This document shows positions 2,843 to 37,535 of a stretch of 45,506 nt of DNA, piece by piece (position 1 is the stretch's first letter; each line of letters begins with the position of its first letter). The notes under the pieces are model-generated. The model was not told the DNA's origin and ran no database searches. It was given only the letters and a program-made list of their open reading frames with translations. Source of the stretch: Bacteroidia bacterium (GTDB taxonomy: Bacteria > Bacteroidota > Bacteroidia > 2-12-FULL-35-15); assembly GCA_036170695.1 (NCBI GenBank), contig JAVHPR010000218.1, positions 1 to 45,506 of the forward strand, given 5' to 3'. A program made the translations under genes and the position numbers.

Positions 2843-5800
2843 TTACGATACTGGAGCCTTTTTCCCTATCTTACTGAAGAGTGATTCAAGAAGGGTTATG
2901 AATTTCTTTAATACATCAAAGTATAGTGTAATGCCTAGGAACAAAGACATTACCCAGATGACACTTAAATTAAACCAAAAGGTATCATAATATCTGTTCA
3001 AAAACTTTTTTCGTGGGGCGAAAAAGTGAGCGCGTCCCAAATTAGATTCTGTAGGATCAAGATAGATAGGATTTGTTTTTTGGATATAAGCACCGTTCAA
3101 ATCCAGTATTTTATACATGGAATTTCTATTCGTAACTAAATCAATCAGGCTTTCATTTTCATAATCGTCTTTTGTTTGTAAATACTGAACCTGAGAAACA
3201 CTGTCTTTATTCATCGAGGATACAACTTTATCTTTTGCATCGCTATATTTTTTATAGGTCTTAATATAGTTCATTTTCAATGAAGATAATAAGTCCCGGA
3301 TTTCTTTTGCGACGTCAGGGGTGAATGTTTCAATAGATAAGGTTGCCATGCTGGGGGAACTGAGTTTCTCATTGTCTTTCAGCCTTAATTCTTTGGAGAT
3401 TTCGCTTTTAATCATTTTTAAGGCGTCGATCACTTCCTGGCGATTGTCTGGTTTTTTGTAAATTTCTTCGCAATTATCTAATTTCTTTGATAAATCGGTC
3501 AACCAATAATCTTTTTTATAGGTTGCAATACTTATTCCCTTATCGTATTTATACAGATTTTTATTAAACTTGTTGTCTCTGAACTGTTTAACAGCAAGGG
3601 CTTCAAAAGCCCACCTGGAAGTCATTATTTCACCTGTAAATGGTACGAAAGTTTGAGAGGAGATACTGGGATTCAGTTTGTCAAATTTTACAATTACACC
3701 ACTTAATATTAATTGAGGAATAATTAAAAATGGAATTAAAATGTAAATAGTAACTGCTGAATTGAAGCTTGCAGAAATATTTAAACCCAGCATATTTGCG
3801 AAGCACGAAGAAGTGAATAATACAATCCAATATTCCCCCCACATTCCTTTTATTTCAAGAACAGAGTTACCAACCAATACAAATAAAAGAGTTTGTATTG
3901 CCGATAATACGAACATAATAGTGATTTTGGACCATAAATAACTTCCTTTGCTCAGGTTCAGGAACGATTCTCGTTTTTGAATTTTCCGGTCACGGATAAT
4001 TTCTTCGGCACTCACCGTTAAACCAATAAATAAGGCAACCACCACCGACATAAACACGTATGCCGGAAGGTTCTCGTTTTCACGAAAAATATATCCTACC
4101 TTATTTGATAAATCGGTATTGTAATATTTAATAAGAAAGGCCAGGATAAATGCTAGAAGAGGGGCTTCCAGAAAATTTATTAAAAGATACTGTGTGTTCG
4201 TTAATTTGGATAATACATCGCGGGTAACAAACACCTTAAACTGCTTGAATTTACTGGGGACTTTAAAAGTGCTTTCCGGTATTTCAGAAAGTTCAGTAAC
4301 CTCTTCAACTCTTTTCTCGATTTTTTCTTTATAATGACTATTCCACTCTGTGGCTGATATTTTACGATTTTGAGTGATGTTGCCAAATTCGTCTAATACT
4401 TTCGATTCAATAATATTAAATACCTGTTCGGGGTTCACGTTACCGCAAACGATACATTCACTTTCGTTGGAATTTACGTGGTTTACAACTGTTTTGAAGT
4501 ATATTACAGAATCTACAGGGTTGCCGTAATAGATAGGAAAGCCGCCAACGTCAAGTATCATCAGCTTATCAAACATTTTGAAAATATCGGATGAGGGCTG
4601 ATGAATAACCACAAATACAAGCTTTCCTTTAAGGGCTAACTCTTTAAGCAAGTCCATAATGTTTTCAGAATCGCGGGAAGAAAGTCCTGAAGTAGGCTCA
4701 TCCACAAACATTACTGATGGCTCACGAATTAATTCCAACGCAATATTTAATCGCTTACGCTGTCCGCCTGAAATTGTTTTTTCTAATGGGCTGCCAACTT
4801 TTAAATCGCGGGTTTCAATCAAACCAATGCTGGTTAATACATCCACCACCATTTCAGAAATTACTTTATCACTCTTATCTCCGAAACAAAGTTTTGCGTT
4901 ATAAAAAAGATTTTGGAAGACAGATAATTCTTCAATCAATAAATCATCCTGGGAAACCATTCCGATAACGCCTTCAATTTTATTTTTTTCAGTATGGATA
5001 TTAATACCGTTAATCTTTACAGAACCGCCACTAGGTATTTCGTTGCTGTTTAAAACATTAAGTAATGTAGATTTTCCAGCACCGGATCCCCCCATGATAC
5101 CGATGAGTTTGCCGGAATCTTCGCTGAAATTTATATTGCGTAATCCCAGTTTGCCGCCTTTAAATTTGTATTCAAGATTTTTAACTACAAATGACACTTT
5201 CGCTTTAGAGGTATCACTCATAAAGGTGCTTAAAATATCGCTGTAATAGATAGGCTTTACTTTCGAGTTGCGTAATGAAGAGCCGGGTGTTAAAATAAAT
5301 ACTTTACCCTGGGTTAATATCTGACCATTCAGATATAAATCGCTTTTACCGAAATAGAGAAGGGCGTAAATATTTACGCTATGAATCCATAATATACGGG
5401 CGTGTCCGTCAATCCCTTCAGAAAAAATATGTTTGGTTTCTCTATACGGATGTTCCGTTTCGTTATTGATTAAAAGGATTTTTGAAGAATCAGGTGTTGC
5501 GCCTTCTTTTGCTTGTATAAAACTCATACAACTCTTAAACTCTTCCTCTACAATGTTAAATGTTTCGGCAACCGTATTTACAAACTCATACTCCTGCTCT
5601 GATATTTCGATATTTGAATTTATAAACTCAAGCAAACGTAATAACACAACTACTTTTTGTACCTGGGTAAGCTCACCGTTTATTTGAGTGCATATCTTTA
5701 AAACTTTTACCGAATTAAGGGATGTGCGTTTGGCTGTACCGTCTTTCTTTTTGGTTACCTGATGATGCGCTTCCAGGAATTCGTCAAATATTGCTAAGTA

Positions 5801-11490: not shown

Positions 11491-11585
11491 AACGCAATTT
11501 ACGAAAAAAAACAAAAACCTTTCCTCTTTATTTCCTTTCCAGGTGAAAGGAAGTGAGACTTAAACCAACAATTAAAATACACTTC

Positions 11586-11617
11586 ATCTCCCTCCCTTTG
11601 GGAGGGCTGGGGTGGGC
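11586..11617. repeat. Solo copy of the CTCCCC hairpin repeat in the metG leader
   Basis: catctccctccctttgggagggctggggtgggc, with hairpin cctccc/ttt/gggagg. It is very similar to the right arm of the element at 18620-18649. Confidence 0.5.
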
Positions 11618-11624
11618 TTCTTAT

Positions 11625-13790
<2,166 letters not shown>

Positions 13791-17816: not shown

Positions 17817-18512
17817 TTATTTTCCAATCAGCAGTTTAAATCCTTTTCCGTGTACATTTATCAACTCCACCGTGCTGTCTTCTTTTAAATATTTACGGAG
17901 CTTTGCAATATATACATCCATACTGCGGCCACTAAAATAATTGTCGTCCTGCCAGATTGATTTCAGTGCAAAATTTCTGTCGAGAATATCATTTGCATTT
18001 AAACAAAGTAGTTTTAATAAATCGGCTTCTTTAGTGGTTAGTTTTTGCTGCACTCCATTAATTTCGAGTGTTTGGTGCTTATAATCAAATTTGTATTTGC
18101 CTATTTTAAACTCAACTTGCTCCGAATGTATTGACGTCTTGTTTTCTGTTCTGCGCAATATAGCTTTAACGCGCAATAGCAATTCCTCCATGCTGAACGG
18201 CTTTGTGATATAATCATCGGCTCCGGCAGAAAAACCTTCTATAGCATCTTCTTTCATTGATTTTGCCGTCAAAAACACGATAGGAACATTGCCATCAATG
18301 GCGCGGATTTCTTTTGCCAGGGTAAAACCATCTTTAATGGGCATCATCACGTCCAAAATACAAATGTTGAATTTGTCTTTTGAAAAAACATCGTAACCTT
18401 GCTTACCATTCACTGCCAAAACAGTTGAATACCCTTTCAGATCTAAATATTCTTTTAAGAGACTACCCAAATTAGGATCGTCTTCTACTAATAATACTTT
18501 TACTTTTGTCAT
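17817..18512 (-). CDS. OmpR/PhoB-family response regulator
   Basis: Receiver domain (VLLVEDD, ILDVMMP, LTAK) plus a winged-helix output domain. The ORF track starts at 18536, but those 8 codons translate the repeat; ATG 18512 (MTKVKVLLVEDD) is preferred. Confidence 0.88.
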   Translation of the reverse strand: MTKVKVLLVEDDPNLGSLLKEYLDLKGYSTVLAVNGKQGYDVFSKDKFNICILDVMMPIKDGFTLAKEIRAIDGNVPIVFLTAKSMKEDAIEGFSAGADDYITKPFSMEELLLRVKAILRRTENKTSIHSEQVEFKIGKYKFDYKHQTLEINGVQQKLTTKEADLLKLLCLNANDILDRNFALKSIWQDDNYFSGRSMDVYIAKLRKYLKEDSTVELINVHGKGFKLLIGK

Positions 18513-18517
18513 AATTA

Positions 18518-18649
18518 GCCCCTCCAACCTCCCCAAAGGGGAGAATTACGTATTTTGTTTATTTAATTACTTTTATATTCATCACAATTTTTTTCAAAAA
18601 AGGTAGCTCGCCTCAGAATCTCCTCCCCTTCGGGGAGGTTGGGAGGGGC
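18518..18649. mobile_element. MITE-like 132-bp element with about 26-bp terminal inverted repeats, flanked by TTA on both sides
   Basis: Left arm gcccctccaacctccccaaaggggag (18518-18543). The right arm ctcctccccttcggggaggttgggaggggc (18620-18649) is its reverse complement with 1 indel and 1 substitution. The spacer is 76 nt and AT-rich. tta lies at 18515-18517 and at 18650-18652. Confidence 0.5.
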
Positions 18650-20254
18650 TTATTTCACCGGTAAATATACCGTAAAAGTACTCCCTTTCCCTAACTCACT
18701 ATCCACACTTATAGAACCTCCATGTTTTTCAACAACAGCTTTTACATAACTTAATCCCAGTCCAAACCCTTTCACAGTATGAATGTTGCCGGTAGAAACA
18801 CGAAACATGGTATCGAATATCCGTTTTTGATTTTCTTTGCTTATCCCTATTCCATTATCTTGTATAGAAATAAAAACACCCTCCTGGTCACTTCTGGTGC
18901 ATATTCTGATTTTTGGTTTGCCATTCGAATATTTTAATGAATTATCAATCAAGTTAAAAATAATATTTGTTACATGTACCTTGTCGGCATTTATTATTGG
19001 ATTTGTTGCTTTTAACTCTGTGGTAATTTCCCCTTCTTTTTTATCCACCTGCAATTTAATGTTGGCGATAGTTTGTTCGATTAATGAATGGATATCAATG
19101 CTCTGAATGTTTAATTTAAACTCGCCCTTATCAAGAATTGCAGTTTGCAAGATATTTTCAACCAATATACTCAGCCGTTTATTCTCATCACCTATCATTT
19201 TTACATAATTGCTAATGCGGTCATTAGATTTTTCAATAGTTTTATCATTTAATACCTCACAAGCCAATGATATTGTTGAAATTGGCGTTTTAAATTCATG
19301 TGTCATATTGCTGATAAAGTCATTTTTTATTTCAGATAGTTTTTTCTGTTTAAAGATGGTAGAAACGGTGTAATAAAAGGAAAAAATTATCACCATCATA
19401 AACGCACCGGATATTGCAAACATAAATCCCATTGAACTCAATAAATAATGACGCTGGTCGGGGAAATAAACCGACAAATACTGTGGTTTTATGAAAATAT
19501 TGTCAGGTGATAAGTTTATTTTATAATTGGATGAAAACAATAATGTTTCAATGTTCGAAAGCCGGCTTATATCGGTTGGAGGGAGTTTCGAAGCTAACAC
19601 GCCAAAAACATAATGAGCCGAAATCCCTTTTTCCTGAAGCTCTATGCGTATTAACGAATCCAGGAGAACGGTGTCAATTTTATCATTGTAATCATTATAA
19701 ATATTGATACTCACCAATTCATCAAAAATATCGTTCACCATGTTTTTCTTTTGAGAGAACCATTTATTTCGTAGTTCCCCCGAATTAAATTGATGTATAT
19801 AAGTAGGGACACCATCTTCGGTAAGAATATCTACTTCTGAAGGCACACTATCACTTAAGTAATTTTTGTGGCGCGATTTTTTTGTTGTTATCCCGTTGGA
19901 ATCGGAAGAGTATTCTTCGTAAATTTTCACATTAATTTTATCTTTGGGGAGAGCGTAATTTTTATTGCCTGATTTGGAACCCGTAATAAATTTTGATCCG
20001 TTTGATAATGAATCTTGCGGAGTAAACCAGCGAATGCCTTGTTTACGAAAATTGAATTTTTTTCGGATTTTTGAAGCCGCAATTTGTTTTTCCATCCTGG
20101 AAACAACATTATTTAAGGCTTCGTTTACGTTTTGTTCGAATCGTTGCTCCCCCAATGTCATTGCATTGTCTAGCCAATAAACCTGAATGGCTGTTAAGCC
20201 TGCCAAAGCAAGACATGCAATTGTTGTTATTATTTTAACATTTCTTTTATTCAT
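18650..20254 (-). CDS. Sensor histidine kinase
   Basis: Two TM helices flank a periplasmic domain of about 250 aa. H-box SNMTHEFKTPIS, and HATPase boxes IQDNGIGIS and GFGLGLS. Confidence 0.88.
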   Translation of the reverse strand: MNKRNVKIITTIACLALAGLTAIQVYWLDNAMTLGEQRFEQNVNEALNNVVSRMEKQIAASKIRKKFNFRKQGIRWFTPQDSLSNGSKFITGSKSGNKNYALPKDKINVKIYEEYSSDSNGITTKKSRHKNYLSDSVPSEVDILTEDGVPTYIHQFNSGELRNKWFSQKKNMVNDIFDELVSINIYNDYNDKIDTVLLDSLIRIELQEKGISAHYVFGVLASKLPPTDISRLSNIETLLFSSNYKINLSPDNIFIKPQYLSVYFPDQRHYLLSSMGFMFAISGAFMMVIIFSFYYTVSTIFKQKKLSEIKNDFISNMTHEFKTPISTISLACEVLNDKTIEKSNDRISNYVKMIGDENKRLSILVENILQTAILDKGEFKLNIQSIDIHSLIEQTIANIKLQVDKKEGEITTELKATNPIINADKVHVTNIIFNLIDNSLKYSNGKPKIRICTRSDQEGVFISIQDNGIGISKENQKRIFDTMFRVSTGNIHTVKGFGLGLSYVKAVVEKHGGSISVDSELGKGSTFTVYLPVK

Positions 20255-20274
20255 TCATGCAAAAATCCTGATTA

Positions 20275-20282
20275 CAAAAATA
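20275..20282 (-). promoter_or_regulatory. -7 promoter box (TAnnTTTG) for the kinase/regulator operon
   Basis: The plus strand reads caaaaata, which is TATTTTTG on the minus strand, 21 nt upstream of ATG 20254. Confidence 0.35.
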
Positions 20283-20371
20283 CGCTATTCTATTAAACGG
20301 TTCGGAGCTTAACATATTTTAACATCACATATTGTATCCACGTTTTAAGCATTGACAAGCTACACCATCAA

Positions 20372-20415
20372 AAAATTGTTTTTACAAAATTGTTTTTTAC
20401 AAAATTGTTTTTTAC
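20372..20415. repeat. Three tandem 14-15-bp direct repeats in a divergent promoter region
   Basis: aaaattgtttttac | aaaattgttttttac | aaaattgttttttac, then a partial atttg. Confidence 0.9.
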
Positions 20416-20562
20416 ATTTGATTTAGTAAATTTAAAACAGAAATAAAAAAAGGAACGACTTTTTGACTTTATTAAAATAATTAGTGCCTAAAATATACTT
20501 GTCCTTTCAAAGAAAATCCCAATCTAAATAATTTAAACACCAACCCAACAATCCCGACGAAC

Positions 20563-29486: not shown

Positions 29487-30056
29487 TCAATTATTCAGCA
29501 AGTCAAAAATAGTTTTCGGGAAAAAGTCATATTCCAATTGATGAATTTTGTGCGCTAGCATTTCAGGAGTATCTGATGGCTCAATCGAGCAAAAGTGTTG
29601 CGCAATTAATTGGCCTTCATCATATTCTTCATTTACAAAATGGATACTGATTCCGCTTTGTTTTTCTTTCGCTTCCACAACAGCTTTATGCACGTTCATT
29701 CCGTACATCCCCTTTCCACCATATTTCGGTAATAAGGCAGGATGAATATTGATGATTTTGTCGGGGAATCTTTTAATCAGATTTTCAGGAATCTTCCATA
29801 AAAAACCCGCAAGTACTATTAAATCAATTTTTGCAGATAATAATTGTTCTTCGGTTTCAGAACTGTTGTAAAATGAATTGCGGTCAACAAGGAGGGTGGG
29901 AATACCCGCTTCTTTTGCGCGATTCAGCACATTTGCTTTTGGATTATTTGAAATTACCAATGCAACTTTTATCCCAACATCAGGTGATCTAAAGTTTTCA
30001 ATAATGTTTTGAGTATTGCTGCCTTCTCCGGAAGCAAAAATTGCTATGTTTTTCAT
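29487..30056 (-). CDS. purN: Phosphoribosylglycinamide formyltransferase
   Basis: IAIFASGEGSN, IINIHPALLPKYGG and ISIHFVNEEYDEGQ motifs. Confidence 0.9.
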   Translation of the reverse strand: MKNIAIFASGEGSNTQNIIENFRSPDVGIKVALVISNNPKANVLNRAKEAGIPTLLVDRNSFYNSSETEEQLLSAKIDLIVLAGFLWKIPENLIKRFPDKIINIHPALLPKYGGKGMYGMNVHKAVVEAKEKQSGISIHFVNEEYDEGQLIAQHFCSIEPSDTPEMLAHKIHQLEYDFFPKTIFDLLNN

Positions 30057-30079
30057 TGGGTATAATCAACATTTTTTTA

Positions 30080-30087
30080 CAAATCTA
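30080..30087 (-). promoter_or_regulatory. -7 promoter box (TAnnTTTG) of purN
   Basis: The plus strand reads caaatcta, which is TAGATTTG on the minus strand, 24 nt upstream of ATG 30056. Confidence 0.4.
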
Positions 30088-30239
30088 CGAATTCCCGACA
30101 GATGTAATATTATTGATATAATTCCAGTCTTCCCTTTTTATGTTTATTTTTAGACTTGCGCCTTAAATTTATAATCAACTGATATACAGGTCTGTAAATG
30201 TTAAAAAAATATAAAAATGGGCATTTTTAAATTATTTTT

Positions 30240-30269
30240 TTTGTTATTGTACACATAACTATATCTTTG
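30240..30269 (+). promoter_or_regulatory. Bacteroidota sigma-A type promoter (-33 TTTG / -7 TAnnTTTG) of acpP-fabF
   Basis: TTTG at 30240-30243 and TATCTTTG at 30262-30269, with 18-nt spacing, 32 nt upstream of acpP. Confidence 0.5.
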
Positions 30270-30300
30270 CACCCTAATTAACCTTAAAACGTTTAAAAAA

Positions 30301-30537
30301 ATGTCAGAAATTGCAACAAAAGTAAAGGCTATTATCGTTGATAAATTAGGTGTTGACGAAAAAGAAGTAACGCCTACAGCTAGCTTTACAAATGATTTGG
30401 GAGCAGACTCATTAGATACTGTAGAATTGATTATGGAGTTTGAAAAAGAATTTAATATTGCTATCCCTGACGATCAAGCTGAGAAAATTGCTACCGTTGG
30501 TGATGCTATTTCCTACATTGAGGCAAATACAAAATAA
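30301..30537 (+). CDS. acpP: Acyl carrier protein
   Basis: 78 aa, with [16 protein letters not shown] containing the phosphopantetheine Ser. Confidence 0.95.
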
Positions 30538-30557
30538 TTCCTGAAACGACTTATTGT

Positions 30558-31814
30558 ATGAATTTAAGACGAGTAGTAGTTACTGGACTTGGTGCTATTA
30601 CACCGCTTGGTAATAATGTTACAGATTACTGGAACAACCTCACAGCTGGTGTTAGCGGAGCAGTACCTATTACCCGTTTTGATGCTTCTAAATTCAAAAC
30701 ACGATTTGCCTGCGAAGTAAAAGGCTTTAGTGTGGAAGAATATTTGGATCGCAAAGAGGCCCGTAAAATGGATCCTTTTTCTCAATTTGGCGTTTGTTCG
30801 GCCATACAAGCTGTTCGTGATGCCGGGTTAGATGGAGCAAATGCCTTTGATCCGGATAGAGCGGGGGTTATCTGGGGCACAGGAATTGGTGGTTTACAGA
30901 CATTCCAGGAAGAGTGTTTGAATTTTGCCAAAGGTGACGGAACTCCTCGTTTCAATCCTTTTTTTATTCCTAAAATGATTGCCGATATTTGTTCGGGACA
31001 TATTTCCATCATGTTTGGCATGCGTGGACCCAATTTTACTACCGTCTCTGCCTGTGCTTCCTCTACCAATTCTATCATTGACGCTGCCGTTTATATTAAA
31101 TTAGGTAAAGCTGATATTATTGTCGCAGGAGGTTCCGAAGCGGCTATTTGTGAAGCCGGTGTAGGTGGCTTTAATGCATTACACGCACTTTCTACCCGAA
31201 ACGACTCTCCGGAAACAGCTTCCCGTCCTTTTGATGTGGATCGTGATGGTTTTGTGCTTGGAGAAGGCGCAGGATGTTTAATACTGGAAGAACTGGAACA
31301 CGCTTTAAAACGTGGAGCCAAAATATACGCAGAAGTTGCAGGTGGAGGTTTGACTGCTGATGCAAACCATATTACAGCACCACATCCTGAAGGTTTCGGC
31401 GCCATAAATGTAATGCGTAACGTTTTGCAGGATGCAGGTATGATACCTGAGCAGATTGATTATGTCAATGTTCATGGTACTTCTACACCTCTTGGCGATG
31501 TGGCTGAAACAATTGCCATACTTAAGGTTTTTGGAGAACATGCTTACAAACTAAATATAAGCTCAACAAAATCAATGACAGGGCATTTATTGGGTGCTGC
31601 CGGTGCTATTGAAGCAATCGCCTGTGTGCTTGCAGTAAAAAATGATATCGTGCCTCCTACTATCAATCACTTTACCGATGATCCTGCTTTAGACAGCAAA
31701 CTTAACTTTACATTCCACAAAGCACAAAAACGTGTTGTTAATGCTGCATTAAGTAATACTTTCGGATTTGGCGGACATAATGCGTCTGTTATTGTTAAGA
31801 AGTATCAGGTATAA
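30558..31814 (+). CDS. fabF: 3-oxoacyl-ACP synthase II
   Basis: Active-site SACASS, HGTSTPLGD, GHLLGAAG, and the C-terminal FGFGGHNAS. Confidence 0.93.
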   Translation: MNLRRVVVTGLGAITPLGNNVTDYWNNLTAGVSGAVPITRFDASKFKTRFACEVKGFSVEEYLDRKEARKMDPFSQFGVCSAIQAVRDAGLDGANAFDPDRAGVIWGTGIGGLQTFQEECLNFAKGDGTPRFNPFFIPKMIADICSGHISIMFGMRGPNFTTVSACASSTNSIIDAAVYIKLGKADIIVAGGSEAAICEAGVGGFNALHALSTRNDSPETASRPFDVDRDGFVLGEGAGCLILEELEHALKRGAKIYAEVAGGGLTADANHITAPHPEGFGAINVMRNVLQDAGMIPEQIDYVNVHGTSTPLGDVAETIAILKVFGEHAYKLNISSTKSMTGHLLGAAGAIEAIACVLAVKNDIVPPTINHFTDDPALDSKLNFTFHKAQKRVVNAALSNTFGFGGHNASVIVKKYQV

Positions 31815-31961
31815 AGTATCAGGTATCAGGTATCAGGTATCAGGTATAAAGTATAAAGTATCGGGAAAGTATCGGTATAAATTATCAGGTATCAGGATGT
31901 TATTTGGGTCTTGATACTTACTACTTGATACTTGATACTTACAACTTGATACTTACTACTT
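31801..31961. repeat. Heptad-array inverted repeat filling the fabF-rnc gap
   Basis: The left arm (31801-31896) is an array of aagtatc/aggtatc/aagtata units. The right arm (31910-31961) is an array of the complementary cttgata/cttacta units. The spacer is 13 nt. Confidence 0.9.
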
Positions 31962-31962
31962 A

Positions 31963-32679
31963 ATGAAACCTTTAAGAGTCTACCTTTCCCCCGACAAAAT
32001 ACTTTACGAATCACTGTTTAGAATACTTGGTTTTTACCCGGGTAATATAGCGTTATATAAATTAGCTTTCCGTCACAGTTCAGCTGCGCAGCTGATTAAA
32101 GTAGGAGTAAAAGATAGCAATGAACGTCTTGAATTTCTCGGTGATTCAATAATCGGAAGCGTAGTGGCAGATTACCTTTTCAAAAAATTTCCTTTCAAAG
32201 ATGAAGGCTTTTTAACCAAGATGCGTTCAAAAATGGTGAGCAGGGCTAAACACAATCATATTGCTATCCATTTAGGATTAAATAAGTTTATTGAAGTCGA
32301 TAACGGACGTTTTAAATCTTCTCAGCCGAGCTCCATCAGTGGTGATGCATATGAAGCATTAATCGGGGCTATTTATCTGGATAAAGGGTATAAAGCAGCT
32401 CAGATTTTTATTCTTAAACGTATCATTAATGTTCACATTGATATGGATGAAGTGGAAACTAAAGAAATAGATTTCAAGAGTAAATTTATTGAATGGGTCC
32501 AAAAAGAAAAAAAAGATTTTCGTTTTGAGGTCGTTAATGAGGCCGGAACGGCATCAGATAAACAATTCGTTATTCAGCTTATAGTCGAAAATGAAATAGT
32601 TGGCACCGCCCAGCATTTCTCTAAAAAGCGTGCCGAACAAATGGTTTCGGAACAGGCGTGTATTATTTTGGAAATTTGA
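31963..32679 (+). CDS. rnc: Ribonuclease III
   Basis: RNase III signature NERLEFLGDS, a second acidic cluster SGDAYEALIGAIYLD, and a C-terminal dsRBD (KSKFIEWVQKE...). Confidence 0.9.
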   Translation: MKPLRVYLSPDKILYESLFRILGFYPGNIALYKLAFRHSSAAQLIKVGVKDSNERLEFLGDSIIGSVVADYLFKKFPFKDEGFLTKMRSKMVSRAKHNHIAIHLGLNKFIEVDNGRFKSSQPSSISGDAYEALIGAIYLDKGYKAAQIFILKRIINVHIDMDEVETKEIDFKSKFIEWVQKEKKDFRFEVVNEAGTASDKQFVIQLIVENEIVGTAQHFSKKRAEQMVSEQACIILEI

Positions 32680-32788: not shown

Positions 32789-33013
32789 TTACTAACCTGA
32801 GTTCGATTATTAATTTGGGCTAAAGCTCAATAAATACGGGCAAATTCAATTTAATTGTATTTCTGCGTTAGGGATTGAAGCGAAAATCCTTTTCTTTTTA
32901 GAAAAGATTGAAGCGTAAAGCCCGACCCTTTCTTTTTTAAGAAAGGGAAACGCCCAAATAATAGTGCTTTTGACAAATTAATTTTATTTTATAAATCGAA
33001 CTCAGGTTACTAA
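32789..33013. repeat. 225-bp element with 20-bp terminal inverted repeats
   Basis: ttactaacctgagttcgatt (32789-32808) / aatcgaactcaggttactaa (32994-33013), 19/20 complementary. The interior holds two gattgaagcg units and short hairpins (ccctttc-ttttttaa-gaaaggg). Confidence 0.6.
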
Positions 33014-33041: not shown

Positions 33042-36000
33042 TTAATAAACAATCACCTTTTTAATGGTTTCCATTCCGGCATTGCTTAAACTTATCAAAT
33101 ACATTCCTTTCCCATATTTTGTAAGATCCATTTGCTTTGCATAGGTTCCATTAAAATCTATTAAAGTTTCTTCATACACCAAGGCTCCCAACGCATTTAT
33201 AAACTCAAGTGTATAGTTTGCTTTTTTAGTCACATCAAATGAAATAGTAAAGTTTCCATCATTCGGGTTCGGGTAAATGGTGAAGAAATTGTTATTGTTT
33301 ATTTGCCCGATACCTGTGTTAGTAACTGTAACAACACCGGAAGGACAAGCATTTCCGGCAACCAGAACATTATAGTCTCCGTTTTGAGTAGGAGTGTATG
33401 TTTGACTGGTGGCGCCTATTACTGGTTGACCAAACCAATACCATTGGTAAGAGGAGGATGAACTGCATGTTAATACAGATCCTGATTGTGTAATAGCAGG
33501 TGTTGGATTTACAGTAATAGTGTATGATGAAGGTGTTCCAACACAAGCTCCATTAATAGTAGGTGTTACCGTTATGGTAGCAGTGATGGCAGAACTTGTT
33601 GAGTTAACTGCAGTGAAAGCAGGTACATTTCCCGTTCCACTTGCTGCTAAACCAATTGCCGTATTTGAGTTCGTCCAGGTATAGGATGCGCCGGATGGGG
33701 TGCTTGAAAAACTGCTTGCACCAATATCCCCTCCACACACGTTTTTATCCGCAATATAATTTATGGTAGGTGCAGGAGTTACAGCAATCGTTATTCCTGC
33801 ACTTGAAACCGTTGTAGGGTTTGCACAGGCTTCGTTAGATGTTACTAAACATGTTATCACCTGACCATCAGTTAACGTTGAGGATGTATAAGTTGCACCT
33901 CCTGTTCCCACATTCCCCCCATTTATTTTCCATTGGTAAACAGGGGTAGTCCCTCCATTGGTTGGTGTAGCGGTGAATGTTAGTGGAAGTCCTCCGCAGG
34001 TTGGATTTGATCCTGATGTCAAAGCCACTAAAACAGAAGGCGTATTAGCGCTGTTCGTTGTTATTATTATAGCCGTGGAAGTTGCTGTTGTTGGGCTTGC
34101 GCAACTTAAGTTGGAAGTCATCACACAGGTAACGGATTGTCCGTTTGTTAGTGAAGAGGTGATAAATGTTGCACTATTTGTTCCAATATTAGAGCCGTCC
34201 ACTTTCCATTGATAAACTGGTGTTGATCCACCACCGCTTGGTGTAGCGGTGAATGTTATTGATGCTCCTGCGCAGGTAGGGTTAGATCCGGATGTAACTG
34301 CAATAGATACGGATGGAGCTACAGATCCGGTTAATGTTATCGTAATTGCTGTTGAGGTTGCTGTTGTCGGACTTGCACAACCCAGGTTGGAAGTCATCAC
34401 ACAGGTTACTATCTGTCCGGTTGTTAGTGTTGAAGTGGTATAGGTTGTACTGTTTGTTCCAACGGGTGTTCCATCTACATTCCATTGGTATGCAGGTGTT
34501 GTCCCTCCATTAGTTGGCACTGCTGTAAATGTCAGTGATTGACCTGCGCACGTCGGGTTTGAACCTGATGTAATAGAAGTGCTTACCACAGGGACAATAC
34601 CACTGGTTGATGTTATTGTTATTGCAGTTGATGTATCTGTTGCCGGACTAGCACAACTTAAGGTGGAGGTCATCACACAGGTAACAACTTGTCCGTTTGT
34701 TAAAGTGGAGGTGGTAAACGTTGTACTGTTGGTTCCAACGGGTGAGCCATCTACTTTCCATTGGTAGCTTGGTGTTGTGCCTCCATTGGTTGGTACTGCC
34801 GTGAATGATAGAGATTGCCCCGTACAGGTTGGATTCGTACCTGTTGTAATAGAAGTAACTACCGCCGGAACAACGCTGCCTGCTGATGTTATTGTTATTG
34901 CAGTAGATGTTGCTGTTGTGGGGCTTGCACAACTCAGGTTAGAGGTCATCACACAGGTAACTACCTGCCCGTTCGTTAATGTAGAAGACGTAAATGTTGC
35001 ACTGTTTGTTCCCACAGCTGATCCGTCAACTTTCCATTGGTAGGCAGGTGTTGTCCCTCCATTGGTTGGTACAGCTGTGAAGGTCAATGATTGCCCCGTG
35101 CAAGTTGGATTTGAACCAGAGGTAATAGATGTCGTTACAACAGGAGCAACATTGCCGACAGTAATATAATTGGTTTTTGTTTCTGTGTTAGGTCCTATGC
35201 CATTTGTTGCAACCAAAGTAATACCATAGGTTCCCGGCGTATTATAACAAATGTTGGTTGGGTTTTGAAGAGTCGAAGAAGTGGTTGCTGCTCCTGTGAA
35301 AGTCCAGGCCCATGAAGTTGGAGAGTTGGTGCTTTGGTCTGTGAGACTTATGCATTGCCCAACACAAACAATGGTATCGCTTGCCAGGAAATTTGCATTG
35401 GGAGCACTCGAAACAACTCCTGTAATATTAATATCATCAATATAGATGTCATTCCCAACGTGATTGGTACTTTCAAACTTGACAATAATATTGCTGCCAA
35501 CAAAAGAGGTTAAAGAAACTGTTTCTGTTCGCCAGTCTCCGGCAATGGTAGGAGTAAACTCTGTTGCAGTTGATCCGGAAGTGGCAAGAACGGTGCCTCC
35601 TTTTACATAAACCGGTGCACCATAACTTACACCGCAATTTGTAGAAACATACACTCTTAAGGTATCATAATTAGCAGGATTCTGGTAATTCTTATAGGCC
35701 ACCTTAAAGGTCATGGATGGGCTGCTGACACCAACTAAACTTACCGGTTTACTGATGAGATTATCCTTTTCTCCTCCGGTTGATGCATAATTAAAATTAG
35801 TATAATAATTAGTTATAAATGCACAGCCGGTACTTGCGCCGTTCCCTGCAGCTGATGTATTTCTATACCATGTAATAATATCATTCGGTGGTGGGCTTTG
35901 TGTTACCGACCAACCTAAAGGAGGGAATGTTGTATTTTCAAAATCTTCTATGAAAGGCAAGGTAGCGCCTCCTACAATTACATAATTTGTTTTTGTAATT

Positions 36001-37535
36001 GTATTGTTTCCGTTGGCATTGGTCGTCGTGAGCTTTACGCTATATGTTCCGGCAGTGGAATAAGTATGCGTCGGGTTTTGAGTTGTATAATCGGTAGTGC
36101 CATTATTGTCAATATCCCAGGCCCATGAAAGAGGCAAACCAAGGCTCAGATCAGTAAAATTAACTATTTGAGGGGCAGAACAGCTGATCACAGGAGATGC
36201 GCTAAAATCAGCGGTTGGAAGGTTGGCGCAAGCCGTTAAACAGGATGCTGCATTATACTGAGTCCTGATATAATTACCTGGTAATGATCCAAAACCATTG
36301 GTAAGTAATATGCCAACGCTGGAAAGATGACAATAACTCATAATGGTTCCCCCATTTGTAGGAGTTGGTCCTGGAGAACACGGCCCATCATCAACAGCTA
36401 CACAGTTGTCTATAGGCCCACCCGGCCATCCACACCAATGCGTATGGTGAGAGCCGAAATTATGACCTAATTCATGAGTAACAACCTCTGATGTCCAGCA
36501 ATAATTTGGGTATGGATCATATGTGTTGTCAATATTGCTCATTCCATAAGCATTTGCAGGAGTACACAATATATCCAGATAAGCCAATCCCCCAACACCA
36601 ATATTTCTGGTGGTTAGTAGATGTGCTACTGTACCATTAAATGTGGTTCGTGTAGTTTGAAAATTGTTGAGCAAATCTGTCGAAGTCGTATAAGAAACGT
36701 AGGGATCAGTTGTTGACCACACATATATTTCCGATATTTCTGTATTTATGATTTCAACATTATATAGTGCCTCCACAACATTAAACATTCCCGTAACGTA
36801 ATTCCCTACATTTATTACACTTCCCTTATCAAGGAACATTTGATAATCACATTCAAAATATACTTTAATACATTGATTGCTTAATAATTGACCTGGATCT
36901 CCGTTGCCGGATAAGGTTTTAGGCATCTCGTCCACACCACATTTAAAATCACGGGCGTACAACACATCGCTGTCTTTATATAAAATGTAAATATTTTTAT
37001 TGACATTGGATTTATCATTCCATACCCCTAATACATAATTTGCGTTGTTGTATGAAAATACCGCCATTATTGAACTTTCGAACATGCTGAATGCTACTAA
37101 TGAAGGACTTACCCCTGGAACAGTTCCCTGATAATATAATCCGGGAGTATAATTTACTTTTTCATTATTACCGGTGATAATAGAGAAATTGTCGGTTAAT
37201 ATTTGTACGTCATGTAGTGCAAAAGTCACTTCATTGTTTGCAGAAACAGGGATTGTTAAATTCAACAAAGAAGATTTTGTTTTATTAATTCGTGTTAGTT
37301 CATTATAGTTGATTTCAAGAAAAACCGCGTCGCGGATATCCTTTTTTACATCCGGTGTATAAGAAAGCGGAAGTCTGTTAAAAAGTTGTTTGCTTTCATT
37401 TTCTTCACTGGAAGGGGCACTTTTAAGCTGCCGGCTTTGACTTTTATTTGCCAGTTGATTAATTGAATTTTGTCCCCATGTGATTGTTCCTAAAAGGATA
37501 CAAGCAGTCAATACGAGTATTACTAATGGTTTCAT
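33042..37535 (-). CDS. Giant secreted reprolysin-like (M12B-type) zinc metalloprotease with PKD domains, five tandem Ig-like repeats and a type A T9SS C-terminal domain
   Basis: Signal peptide; VVTHELGHNFGSHHTHWC (HExxHxxGxxH); PKD cores (SWAWDIDNNGT..., SWAWTFTG...); a FEDFE..FPPLGW choice-of-anchor-J-like module; C-terminal FFTIYPNPNDGNFTISF...GMYLISLSNAGMETIKKVIVY. Confidence 0.85.
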   Translation of the reverse strand: MKPLVILVLTACILLGTITWGQNSINQLANKSQSRQLKSAPSSEENESKQLFNRLPLSYTPDVKKDIRDAVFLEINYNELTRINKTKSSLLNLTIPVSANNEVTFALHDVQILTDNFSIITGNNEKVNYTPGLYYQGTVPGVSPSLVAFSMFESSIMAVFSYNNANYVLGVWNDKSNVNKNIYILYKDSDVLYARDFKCGVDEMPKTLSGNGDPGQLLSNQCIKVYFECDYQMFLDKGSVINVGNYVTGMFNVVEALYNVEIINTEISEIYVWSTTDPYVSYTTSTDLLNNFQTTRTTFNGTVAHLLTTRNIGVGGLAYLDILCTPANAYGMSNIDNTYDPYPNYCWTSEVVTHELGHNFGSHHTHWCGWPGGPIDNCVAVDDGPCSPGPTPTNGGTIMSYCHLSSVGILLTNGFGSLPGNYIRTQYNAASCLTACANLPTADFSASPVISCSAPQIVNFTDLSLGLPLSWAWDIDNNGTTDYTTQNPTHTYSTAGTYSVKLTTTNANGNNTITKTNYVIVGGATLPFIEDFENTTFPPLGWSVTQSPPPNDIITWYRNTSAAGNGASTGCAFITNYYTNFNYASTGGEKDNLISKPVSLVGVSSPSMTFKVAYKNYQNPANYDTLRVYVSTNCGVSYGAPVYVKGGTVLATSGSTATEFTPTIAGDWRTETVSLTSFVGSNIIVKFESTNHVGNDIYIDDINITGVVSSAPNANFLASDTIVCVGQCISLTDQSTNSPTSWAWTFTGAATTSSTLQNPTNICYNTPGTYGITLVATNGIGPNTETKTNYITVGNVAPVVTTSITSGSNPTCTGQSLTFTAVPTNGGTTPAYQWKVDGSAVGTNSATFTSSTLTNGQVVTCVMTSNLSCASPTTATSTAITITSAGSVVPAVVTSITTGTNPTCTGQSLSFTAVPTNGGTTPSYQWKVDGSPVGTNSTTFTTSTLTNGQVVTCVMTSTLSCASPATDTSTAITITSTSGIVPVVSTSITSGSNPTCAGQSLTFTAVPTNGGTTPAYQWNVDGTPVGTNSTTYTTSTLTTGQIVTCVMTSNLGCASPTTATSTAITITLTGSVAPSVSIAVTSGSNPTCAGASITFTATPSGGGSTPVYQWKVDGSNIGTNSATFITSSLTNGQSVTCVMTSNLSCASPTTATSTAIIITTNSANTPSVLVALTSGSNPTCGGLPLTFTATPTNGGTTPVYQWKINGGNVGTGGATYTSSTLTDGQVITCLVTSNEACANPTTVSSAGITIAVTPAPTINYIADKNVCGGDIGASSFSSTPSGASYTWTNSNTAIGLAASGTGNVPAFTAVNSTSSAITATITVTPTINGACVGTPSSYTITVNPTPAITQSGSVLTCSSSSSYQWYWFGQPVIGATSQTYTPTQNGDYNVLVAGNACPSGVVTVTNTGIGQINNNNFFTIYPNPNDGNFTISFDVTKKANYTLEFINALGALVYEETLIDFNGTYAKQMDLTKYGKGMYLISLSNAGMETIKKVIVY
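33771..35150 (-). repeat. Five tandem 276-nt (92-codon) coding repeats
   Basis: The YQW(K/N)(V/I)(D/N)G landmark recurs at about 33932, 34206, 34482, 34758 and 35033. The repeat unit is ...TSGSNPTC.GQSLTFTAVPTNGGTTPAYQWKVDG..VGTNS.T.T.STLTNGQVVTCVMTSNLSCASPTTATSTAITIT... Confidence 0.85.

Follow-up and report, generated by a model that had tools for sequence, protein, structure and literature searches.

The gap between fabF and rnc in a 45,506-nt contig of a Bacteroidia bacterium (JAVHPR010000218.1, referred to as the window) is filled by an intercistronic hairpin that is made of two inverted heptanucleotide arrays, which places it in a widespread class of paired heptamer arrays. Comparison with related genomes indicates that, in a genus-level group of uncultured Bacteroidia, a hairpin replaced an ancestral spacer of ~10 nt between the fabF stop codon and the TTG start codon of rnc, the gene encoding RNase III. 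The class of paired heptamer arrays is known but poorly understood, and the instance described here is new. The reading that we favour, rating it slightly under an even chance, is that the hairpin at the rnc junction would be cut by RNase III and would give feedback on rnc.

Both arms of the element are arrays with a period of 7. Tandem Repeats Finder assigned 14.1 copies to the left array (31802-31896, consensus GTATCAG) and 7.9 copies to the right array (31910-31964, CTTGATA/CTTAATA), and an inverted repeat (I1) of 55 nt with 75% complementarity was found over the 3' arm. The polarity of the element is 5'-(AGGTATC-type)n, loop, (GATACTT-type)m-3'. Its copies are arranged head to tail, are near-perfect and exceed chance, as in heptanucleotide simple-sequence repeats: the two-unit probe GTATCAGGTATCAG, with up to 2 mismatches, matched eight times in the 45.5-kb window and always within the element, while 0.13 matches were expected from shuffled sequence and none of 100 shuffles reached eight. 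A first-pass annotation of this DNA had described the entire fabF-rnc gap as one inverted structure, with a left arm of ~13 units that begins inside the last fabF codons and a 13-nt spacer. This description held, as the two complementary arrays and the spacer fill the 148 nt of the gap (31815-31962), and the fabF end (KKYQV*, stop at 31812-31814) and the rnc start (MKPLRVY, ATG at 31963) lie where they had been placed. The last two fabF codons and the stop (CAG GTA TAA) are themselves built from heptad units. The right arm had been given ~7 units ending 1 nt before the ATG; the complementary array is there, but it runs on to 31964 and thus into the rnc start codon, and it contains TGA stops.

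Four Logan assemblies from other sequencing runs, all encoding the same RNase III protein, were identical to the window over 31818-31965, and an assembly artefact is therefore excluded for the loop, the right arm and the inner left arm. All four contigs, one of which occurs in 10 samples, break within the perfect (GTATCAG)4 run. The resolved part of the element is thus invariant across the four contigs, and the copy number of the run at which they break is that of the window assembly alone. We also considered a mobile element resembling miniature inverted-repeat transposable elements or repetitive extragenic palindromic (REP) sequences and rejected it: the window holds no second copy, and a copy at another locus of a relative (L001; L-numbers denote loci of relatives) shares the heptad and differs in loop and arm lengths.

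The + strand RNA of 31795-31970 folded at -61.2 kcal/mol, compared with an average of -32.1 for shuffled sequences (z -7.9), and none of 200 shuffles was as stable; a computed fold had been proposed as a check of the first-pass annotation, and a stable structure was indeed predicted. RNAfold placed the pairing in helix 1 (31814-31824/31944-31954, 11 bp), helix 2 (31828-31846/31922-31940, 19 bp) and helix 3 (31887-31898/31908-31919, 12 bp), the last of which bears out the expectation that the arm ends nearest the spacer pair. The left arm exceeds the right arm, which leaves ~40 nt (31847-31886) to protrude as a side hairpin with a 7-bp stem (31858-31864/31872-31878). According to the partition function, 31944-31953 (-19 to -10 of rnc) is essentially never unpaired in the ensemble. 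In the predicted structure the foot of the main stem is at 31954 and -19 to -9 is fully paired; the stem therefore reaches close to the AUG as had been suggested, but the AUG itself lies 8 nt past the foot and not at it. When 31500-32300 was scanned against Rfam with a permissive cut-off (E up to 10), the hairpin was matched only far below gathering scores, by models of plant microRNA precursors, long non-coding RNAs and small nucleolar RNAs that we read as chance. Rfam includes a model of rncO, the E. coli rnc leader. Flavo-1 was the sole Rfam family in the window at gathering threshold and lies away from the hairpin.

Folding of the - strand was far weaker (-36.7 kcal/mol, z -3.6), as 14 of the 75 pairs in the predicted + strand fold are G-U. 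We rejected the interpretation of this difference as selection at the RNA level. The inserts of relatives fold equally well on both strands, and the L001 copy of the heptad hairpin keeps the better-folding strand though its flanking genes lie on the opposite strand. The G-U strand asymmetry is a property of the repeat unit and not of the direction of transcription.

The NCBIfam matches of acpP, fabF and rnc are full-length and above threshold in all three cases, and the Pfam domains Ribonuclease_3 and dsrm were found on a protein identical to the RNase III of the window. A regex scan of 29900-32100 for TAnnTTTG, which we take to be a marker of Bacteroidetes promoters, gave a single + strand match at 30262, upstream of acpP, and hence no such motif for rnc itself. 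A terminator scan gave no terminator-like site in 31800-31970. As the only -7 motif lies upstream of acpP and the gap lacks a terminator, the simplest reading is that acpP, fabF and rnc are co-transcribed with the hairpin included, in support of what the first-pass annotation had presupposed. The fabF-rnc spacer of relatives is too short for a promoter, and a promoter within the fabF coding region is possible. Two sigma-70 promoter-like matches in the gap were discarded, as they are made by the heptads with 9 of 12 positions matching and the model is unsuited to Bacteroidetes. An intrinsic Rho-independent terminator was likewise discarded, as the stem is followed by AAUGAAACC and not by a U-tract.

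How might the hairpin act on rnc? As rnc has no promoter motif of its own, the hairpin would be transcribed as part of the acpP-fabF-rnc mRNA, in which an interrupted duplex of ~45 bp would bury -50 to -9 of rnc. In Bacteroidia, ribosomes do not respond to Shine-Dalgarno sequences, and what mainly tunes initiation is the structure of the mRNA around the start (PMC6847099), so a stem over -50 to -9 should matter for rnc. RNase III, encoded immediately 3', is the enzyme that would be expected to cut the duplex. The predicted near-coaxial helix of 19 + 11 bp represents a plausible RNase III substrate, which agrees with the earlier view of the element as long double-stranded RNA (dsRNA) of the RNase III-substrate kind and has a precedent in the hmw system discussed below. 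Cleavage of the hairpin by RNase III is probable if the region is transcribed as proposed. It would separate rnc from the abundant acpP-fabF message and alter rnc translation or stability, and it could make the start region accessible or leave the message open to decay. RNase III output would then track free RNase III activity, which amounts to feedback of either sign. That this feedback evolved as autoregulation of rnc is plausible, and we propose it more tentatively than the cleavage itself. Any long duplex would serve and its sequence would be irrelevant, so the repeat unit at the junction should be freely exchangeable, as was observed.

We analyzed the junction in relatives using an RNase III protein scan with one genome per species, which yielded 80 loci, all from uncultured Bacteroidia or Bacteroidota. 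fabF lies directly 5' of rnc in nearly all of them, and in the majority with a short gap (14-29 nt) rnc starts at a TTG ~10 nt after the fabF stop. Among the 79 relatives with a measurable fabF-rnc gap, a minority carries inserts of 79-260 nt. In a tree of fabF and rnc, the window falls into a clade of 13 genomes, 12 of which carry an insert in the gap; among the 39 genomes of the sister clade there are four inserts, and among 26 more distant genomes one. Ten gaps reached z <= -4 against shuffles (z -4 to -8; window, L001-L006, L049, L015 and the distant L067), eight of them in the window's clade. Every relative with an identical acyl carrier protein (L205-L214) also carries an insert in the fabF-rnc gap, and the distant L067 has an independent hairpin of 177 nt there. 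We compared these values with other intergenic gaps of at least 40 nt, counting z <= -5 on either strand. In the window's clade the criterion was reached by 8 of 12 fabF-rnc gaps and 7 of 69 other gaps (Fisher test, p = 7e-5, which ignores shared ancestry). The corresponding numbers were 0 of 4 scorable inserts and 10 of 131 other gaps in the sister clade, and 0 of 1 scorable insert and 3 of 80 other gaps in the distant genomes. Hairpin load is similar in both clades, and the rnc junction is occupied only in the window's clade.

The inserts belong to at least three unrelated unit families. At the fabF-rnc gap, the GTATCAG family was seen in the window only. An 8-mer, GATGTGCT, paired with AGCACATC, was present in L001, L003, L206, L213, L049, L010 and L015, and AATATTT/AATAGGT paired with ACCTATT/AAATATT in L002, L004, L005, L006, L205 and L209. 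L003 carries a GATGTGCT-type hairpin including the L001 loop, and is nested in the tree among the near-identical L002, L004 and L005, which are of the AATATTT/AATAGGT type. Either the intercistronic cassette was apparently swapped by recombination between very close genomes or the L003 bin is chimeric. Among the relatives inspected, no more than 2 nt separate the fabF stop from the beginning of the 5' arm, and the 3' arm stops a few nt before the rnc start. The element of the window went further. Compared with relatives, whose fabF ends in ...KKYIA* or KKYSA* and whose rnc uses the TTG ~4 codons further upstream, it overwrote the last two fabF codons and the stop, removed the rnc TTG and four codons, and left a new ATG.

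This turnover bears on two alternatives that we both consider very improbable. One is phase variation of rnc, in which heptad copy number would alter the hairpin and switch the RNase III level between subpopulations, comparable to hmw of H. influenzae. Besides this precedent (PMC12721329), it could draw on the insert lengths of 144, 160, 218 and 247 nt within one unit family among close relatives. Yet the part of the element resolved by short reads is identical in the four Logan contigs, including the one from 10 samples; surplus units loop out, so modest copy changes should spare the main stem; and rnc is a housekeeping gene. The other alternative is an element acting at the DNA level as a cruciform, a replication-pause site or a recombination hotspot, with the RNA structure being incidental. 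The roughly equal folding of relatives' inserts on both strands would fit, as would a polarity that is identical on both strands and the swap of a unit family between near-identical genomes, which implies recombination at the site. Against this, the element sits inside an operon and would be transcribed in any case, and in the window the 14 G-U pairs weaken a DNA cruciform and the - strand relative to the + strand RNA.

Heptad-array hairpins are not confined to rnc. An exact (GTATCAG)3 probe of metagenome contigs matched at least 120 contigs with a GC content of 0.35-0.71 from many habitats and many phyla. The arrays are flanked by the variant units GTGTCAG, GGGTCAG and GAATCAG and generally lie within 0-10 nt of stop or start codons. 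Among 79 contigs with full flanks, a complementary CTGATAC array was found downstream in 29 and upstream in 1, a polarity that reads alike on both strands. In single arrays, 19 gene starts adjoin the CTGATAC side and 4 the GTATCAG side. None of the 120 metagenome loci listed (L081-L200) is a fabF-rnc gap and none comes from the window's lineage. A phage origin was rejected, as just 12 viral contigs out of 2.9 million contain the array. L001, which belongs to the window's own clade, carries a hairpin of AAGTATC/AGGTATC followed by CTTGATA that extends from the purN stop to the start of RNase HII (rnhB). The same gap holds hairpins of other 7-9-nt units in L005/L210, L007 and L213, and similar ones occur in other gaps elsewhere. 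Within the loci compared (~3-4 kb around rnc or acpP), both gaps that are recurrently occupied in this clade lie directly 5' of an RNase gene. Among the long simple-sequence repeats of prokaryotes, heptanucleotides rank first in abundance, and they are the most slippage-prone long class (Mrazek 2007, as cited in PMC4679880).

These data bring in the main rival of our reading, a neutral or selfish repeat expansion, which we regard as rather unlikely. The array would be a by-product of slippage, template switching between arms and recombination with other arrays, and would have no regulatory role. It would be tolerated here because a self-pairing insert keeps the fabF stop and the rnc start adjacent, and a ribosome terminating on fabF would melt the 11-bp basal helix and expose the rnc start, so that the ancestral translational coupling is kept. 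The dispersal of the class at many unrelated loci speaks for this, as does the slippage-prone nature of heptamers. The insert is missing from most relatives and has decayed in several lineages, and the arms abut stop (<=2 nt) and start (few nt) in relatives and stop or start codons in metagenomes (0-10 nt). The ancestral spacing of ~10 nt with a weak TTG start is typical of coupling. On its own, however, neutral expansion leaves unexplained why 12 of 13 genomes of the clade are occupied when ~10% of other gaps are comparably structured, and why the site was re-established with a new unit and not lost. A single ancestral insertion followed by recombination could account for both. The neutral reading and processing by RNase III do not exclude each other.

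A third role, that of an operon insulator or 3' stabiliser, would need no feedback: the hairpin would protect the acpP-fabF message from 3' exonucleases, lower read-through or translation into rnc, and set very different levels of the abundant lipid-synthesis proteins and the scarce RNase III. REP-type hairpins in E. coli act in this way. The position directly after the stop of a highly expressed gene pair and the very stable stem are in line with it, and purN-rnhB, the second occupied site of relatives, likewise runs from a stop to a start codon between two cistrons. We nevertheless consider it quite improbable. The stem lacks the U-tract of an intrinsic terminator, relatives run the same operon with ~10 nt between the genes, and a long perfect duplex would hardly escape RNase III.

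Several observations weigh against RNase III feedback as the function of the hairpin. In most of the 79 relatives the gap measures 14-29 nt and has no room for a hairpin; as these relatives share the fabF-rnc synteny, rnc expression can do without the hairpin. The structure has decayed in L008, L009, L018, L022, L040 and L041 and is absent in L007. One inherited ancestral insertion could explain the occupancy of the clade, so the enrichment statistic overstates independence. Comparable hairpins occur at loci unrelated to rnc. RNAalifold was uninformative as to covariation, with 3 compensatory pairs in the AATATTT-type set (A1), 5 in the GATGTGCT-type set (A2) and positive covariation penalty terms, values that come from too few sequences and an ambiguous repeat alignment. 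Finally, the better folding of the + strand is not seen in relatives and follows the unit even between - strand genes. A conserved regulatory element of rnc is not borne out given the short gap of most relatives, and neither is an rnc-specific motif given the dispersal of such hairpins at unrelated loci in many phyla. The comparison of spacers that the first-pass annotation had called for gave a divided answer: structure persists in the window's clade and is not conserved across relatives with the same gene order. The refilling of the site with different units and the independent L067 hairpin argue for more than inertia, although selection is not proven. It is the persistence at this one junction in the window's clade that keeps the idea of autoregulation alive.

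A more far-reaching version, which we deem improbable, treats the fabF-rnc junction of this Bacteroidia genus as a dedicated dsRNA-sensor slot that would match the RNase III level to the hairpin load of other transcripts by titration feedback. Whatever heptad or octad family happens to be active in the genome could refill the slot. As in hmw, the arrays might in turn grow and shrink through the action of RNase III and transcription, and the repeat class would thereby be coupled to the nuclease that processes it. An occupied site 5' of RNase HII would fit a wider link between repeats and RNA-processing genes.

We compared the element with known systems. One close parallel is hmw of H. influenzae, where RNase III cleaves a heptad-array hairpin in the 5' untranslated region, with consequences for expression and repeat dynamics (Rapun-Araiz et al., 2025, PMC12721329). 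In both cases, as far as predicted structures go, a heptad array makes up the left arm of a long hairpin (>100 nt) upstream of an initiation codon, and surplus repeats leave the stem unchanged. In contrast to the window, the right arm of hmw is non-repetitive and G-rich and not a complementary array, the regulated gene encodes an adhesin and not RNase III, and cleavage was shown experimentally there, whereas for the window hairpin it is predicted. Another parallel is E. coli, whose RNase III cuts its own rnc leader and is titrated from it by other substrates (Bardwell, 1989; Matsunaga, 1996; both as cited in PMC5371410). Like rncO, the hairpin of the window is a stable stem-loop directly 5' of rnc on what is probably the rnc transcript, and it would be expected to be cut by the product of that gene; in E. 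coli titration gives homeostasis, according to the same citing account. Unlike rncO, it shows no sequence or model similarity to that leader in the Rfam scan. A unique and conserved leader, rncO sits at the operon's 5' end, whereas the window element is an intercistronic repeat insert of exchangeable sequence that is absent in most relatives. A stem-loop directly upstream of the gene is thus shared, and leader-family similarity and conservation among relatives are not.

In terms of its repeats, the element resembles the 70-75 pairs of GGGAATC arrays in Xanthomonas, which are always convergent (Rehm et al., 2015, PMC4692102). These are likewise intergenic 7-nt arrays near neighbouring open reading frames (ORFs) with a complementary array close by and stem-loop potential, and their length and sequence vary between close relatives. 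The window shares with them complementary arrays in one gap with the G-richer array 5', a polarity also found in 29 of 30 metagenome pairs. The unit is a different one (AGGTATC/AAGTATC; AGGTATC is identical to GGGAATC at 5 of 7 positions), the phylum differs, and the Xanthomonas study was framed on G-quadruplexes and described no link to rnc (PMC4692102). TAACTGA heptamer direct repeats are known from Beggiatoaceae, Cyanobacteria and some Bacteroidetes (MacGregor, 2015, PMC4679880). They too are intergenic arrays of fixed orientation; the corresponding gap of close relatives lacks them, and the lineages that have them possess few Shine-Dalgarno sites. A forward array ending a few nt from a start codon is found in the window as well, where the 3' arm runs into the ATG at 31963. 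The units differ, as TACTTGA/TACTTAC of the 3' arm agrees with TAACTGA at 5 of 7 positions at best (TACTTGA) and the metagenome form TACCTGA at 6 of 7. Moreover, most TAACTGA repeats form short direct arrays (2-6 copies) and a single inverted case is reported, and the role proposed for them is binding of a translational regulator and not dsRNA formation (PMC4679880).

Dispersed intergenic tandem heptanucleotide arrays with several unit families per genome were reportedly described in cyanobacteria by Mazel and co-workers in 1990 as short tandemly repeated repetitive (STRR) sequences, and are mentioned in PMC4692102. They differ from the window element in phylum and units, are still unexplained in function and are not tied to rnc.

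If the feedback reading is correct, Bacteroidia would have evolved autoregulation of RNase III independently, out of a simple-sequence repeat and not from a dedicated leader, and a regulatory structure could be rebuilt from unrelated sequence with place and shape kept. Paired heptamer arrays, which are widespread in many phyla and functionally unexplained, would gain a role as intergenic RNase III substrates. If the element is merely tolerated junk, it would still follow a strict rule, as the inserts fill stop-to-start gaps exactly and with constant polarity, and this would constrain models of their origin.

Positions of the junction genes, of the parts of the hairpin and of the purN-rnhB hairpins of relatives. 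Positions are those of the window unless a locus is named.
Feature	Position	Strand	Basis
Bacteroidetes-type -7 promoter motif TAtcTTTG, 32 nt 5' of acpP	30262..30269	+	Regex scan
acpP (acyl carrier protein), first gene of the proposed acpP-fabF-rnc transcript	30301..30537	+	NCBIfam NF002151, 135.9 bits
fabF (beta-ketoacyl-ACP synthase II)	30558..31814	+	TIGR03150, 599.8 bits
5' arm, ~14 heptads (AAGTATC, AGGTATC, AAGTATA and degenerate units)	31800..31896	+	Tandem Repeats Finder; pattern enrichment
Predicted long-range duplex, three helices, ~45 bp interrupted	31814..31954	+	RNAfold minimum-free-energy structure and partition function
Surplus 5'-arm units without partner in the shorter 3' arm, bulged	31847..31886	+	Minimum-free-energy structures
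13-nt spacer ATGTTATTTGGGT, apical loop region	31897..31909	+	Sequence and fold
3' arm, ~8 complementary heptads (CTTGATA, CTTACTA, CTTAATA)	31910..31964	+	Tandem Repeats Finder; inverted repeat
rnc (RNase III with dsRNA-binding domain)	31963..32679	+	TIGR02191, 192.4 bits
purN-rnhB hairpins of relatives	L001 380-483 (= L207 3033-3117); L005 269-475 (= L210); L007 265-536; L213 2259-2347		

Some further structures were noted around rnc. The Flavo-1 RNA motif (Rfam RF01705, 60.4 bits, gathering score 42) lies at 32855-32931 on the + strand, within a gap of 362 nt that follows rnc. A search of 20 related loci did not recover it, so it is not tied to rnc. In L008, two adjoining G/T-rich heptad arrays, (TAGTTGG)n and (GTTATTG)n, at 3238-3425 pair solely via G-U and A-U, and the region folds at -43.6 kcal/mol on the + strand and at 0.0 on the - strand. 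Six genomes of the sister clade (L012, L017, L021, L025, L030 and L031) share a structured gap (z -5.7 to -9.7) at ~4200-4540, ~0.5-0.8 kb 3' of rnc, which may be another conserved hairpin site.

Other repeats were found elsewhere in the window. Five perfect AATGGAA heptads at 12440-12475 lie inside the methionyl-tRNA synthetase ORF (11553-13790) and encode part of an 18-residue stretch without counterpart in the solved homologue 1rqg, representing a heptad array that is tolerated in frame in an essential gene. At 18510-18651, a long-range inverted repeat (GCCCCTCCAACCTCCCCAAAGGGGAG ... CTCCCCTTCGGGGAGGTTGGGAGGGGC) with a small hairpin of its own in each arm brackets the whole gap between two - strand genes. 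Two strong hairpins at 2586-2672 and 2722-2760 lie in a 433-nt gap upstream of a - strand ORF of 1030 aa; one of them is a perfect 16-bp stem (CCGCTCGAACTGACTG...), and the region of 160 nt has a folding energy of -64.6 kcal/mol. The divergent intergenic region 20255-20562 contains, at 20372-20416, 3.1 copies of a 15-nt unit, AAAATTGTTTTTTAC, with 96% identity. Finally, a tandem repeat of 276 nt (33919-35129, 4.4 copies, 74% identity) lies inside a - strand ORF of 1497 aa (33042-37535) and presumably represents repeated protein domains.

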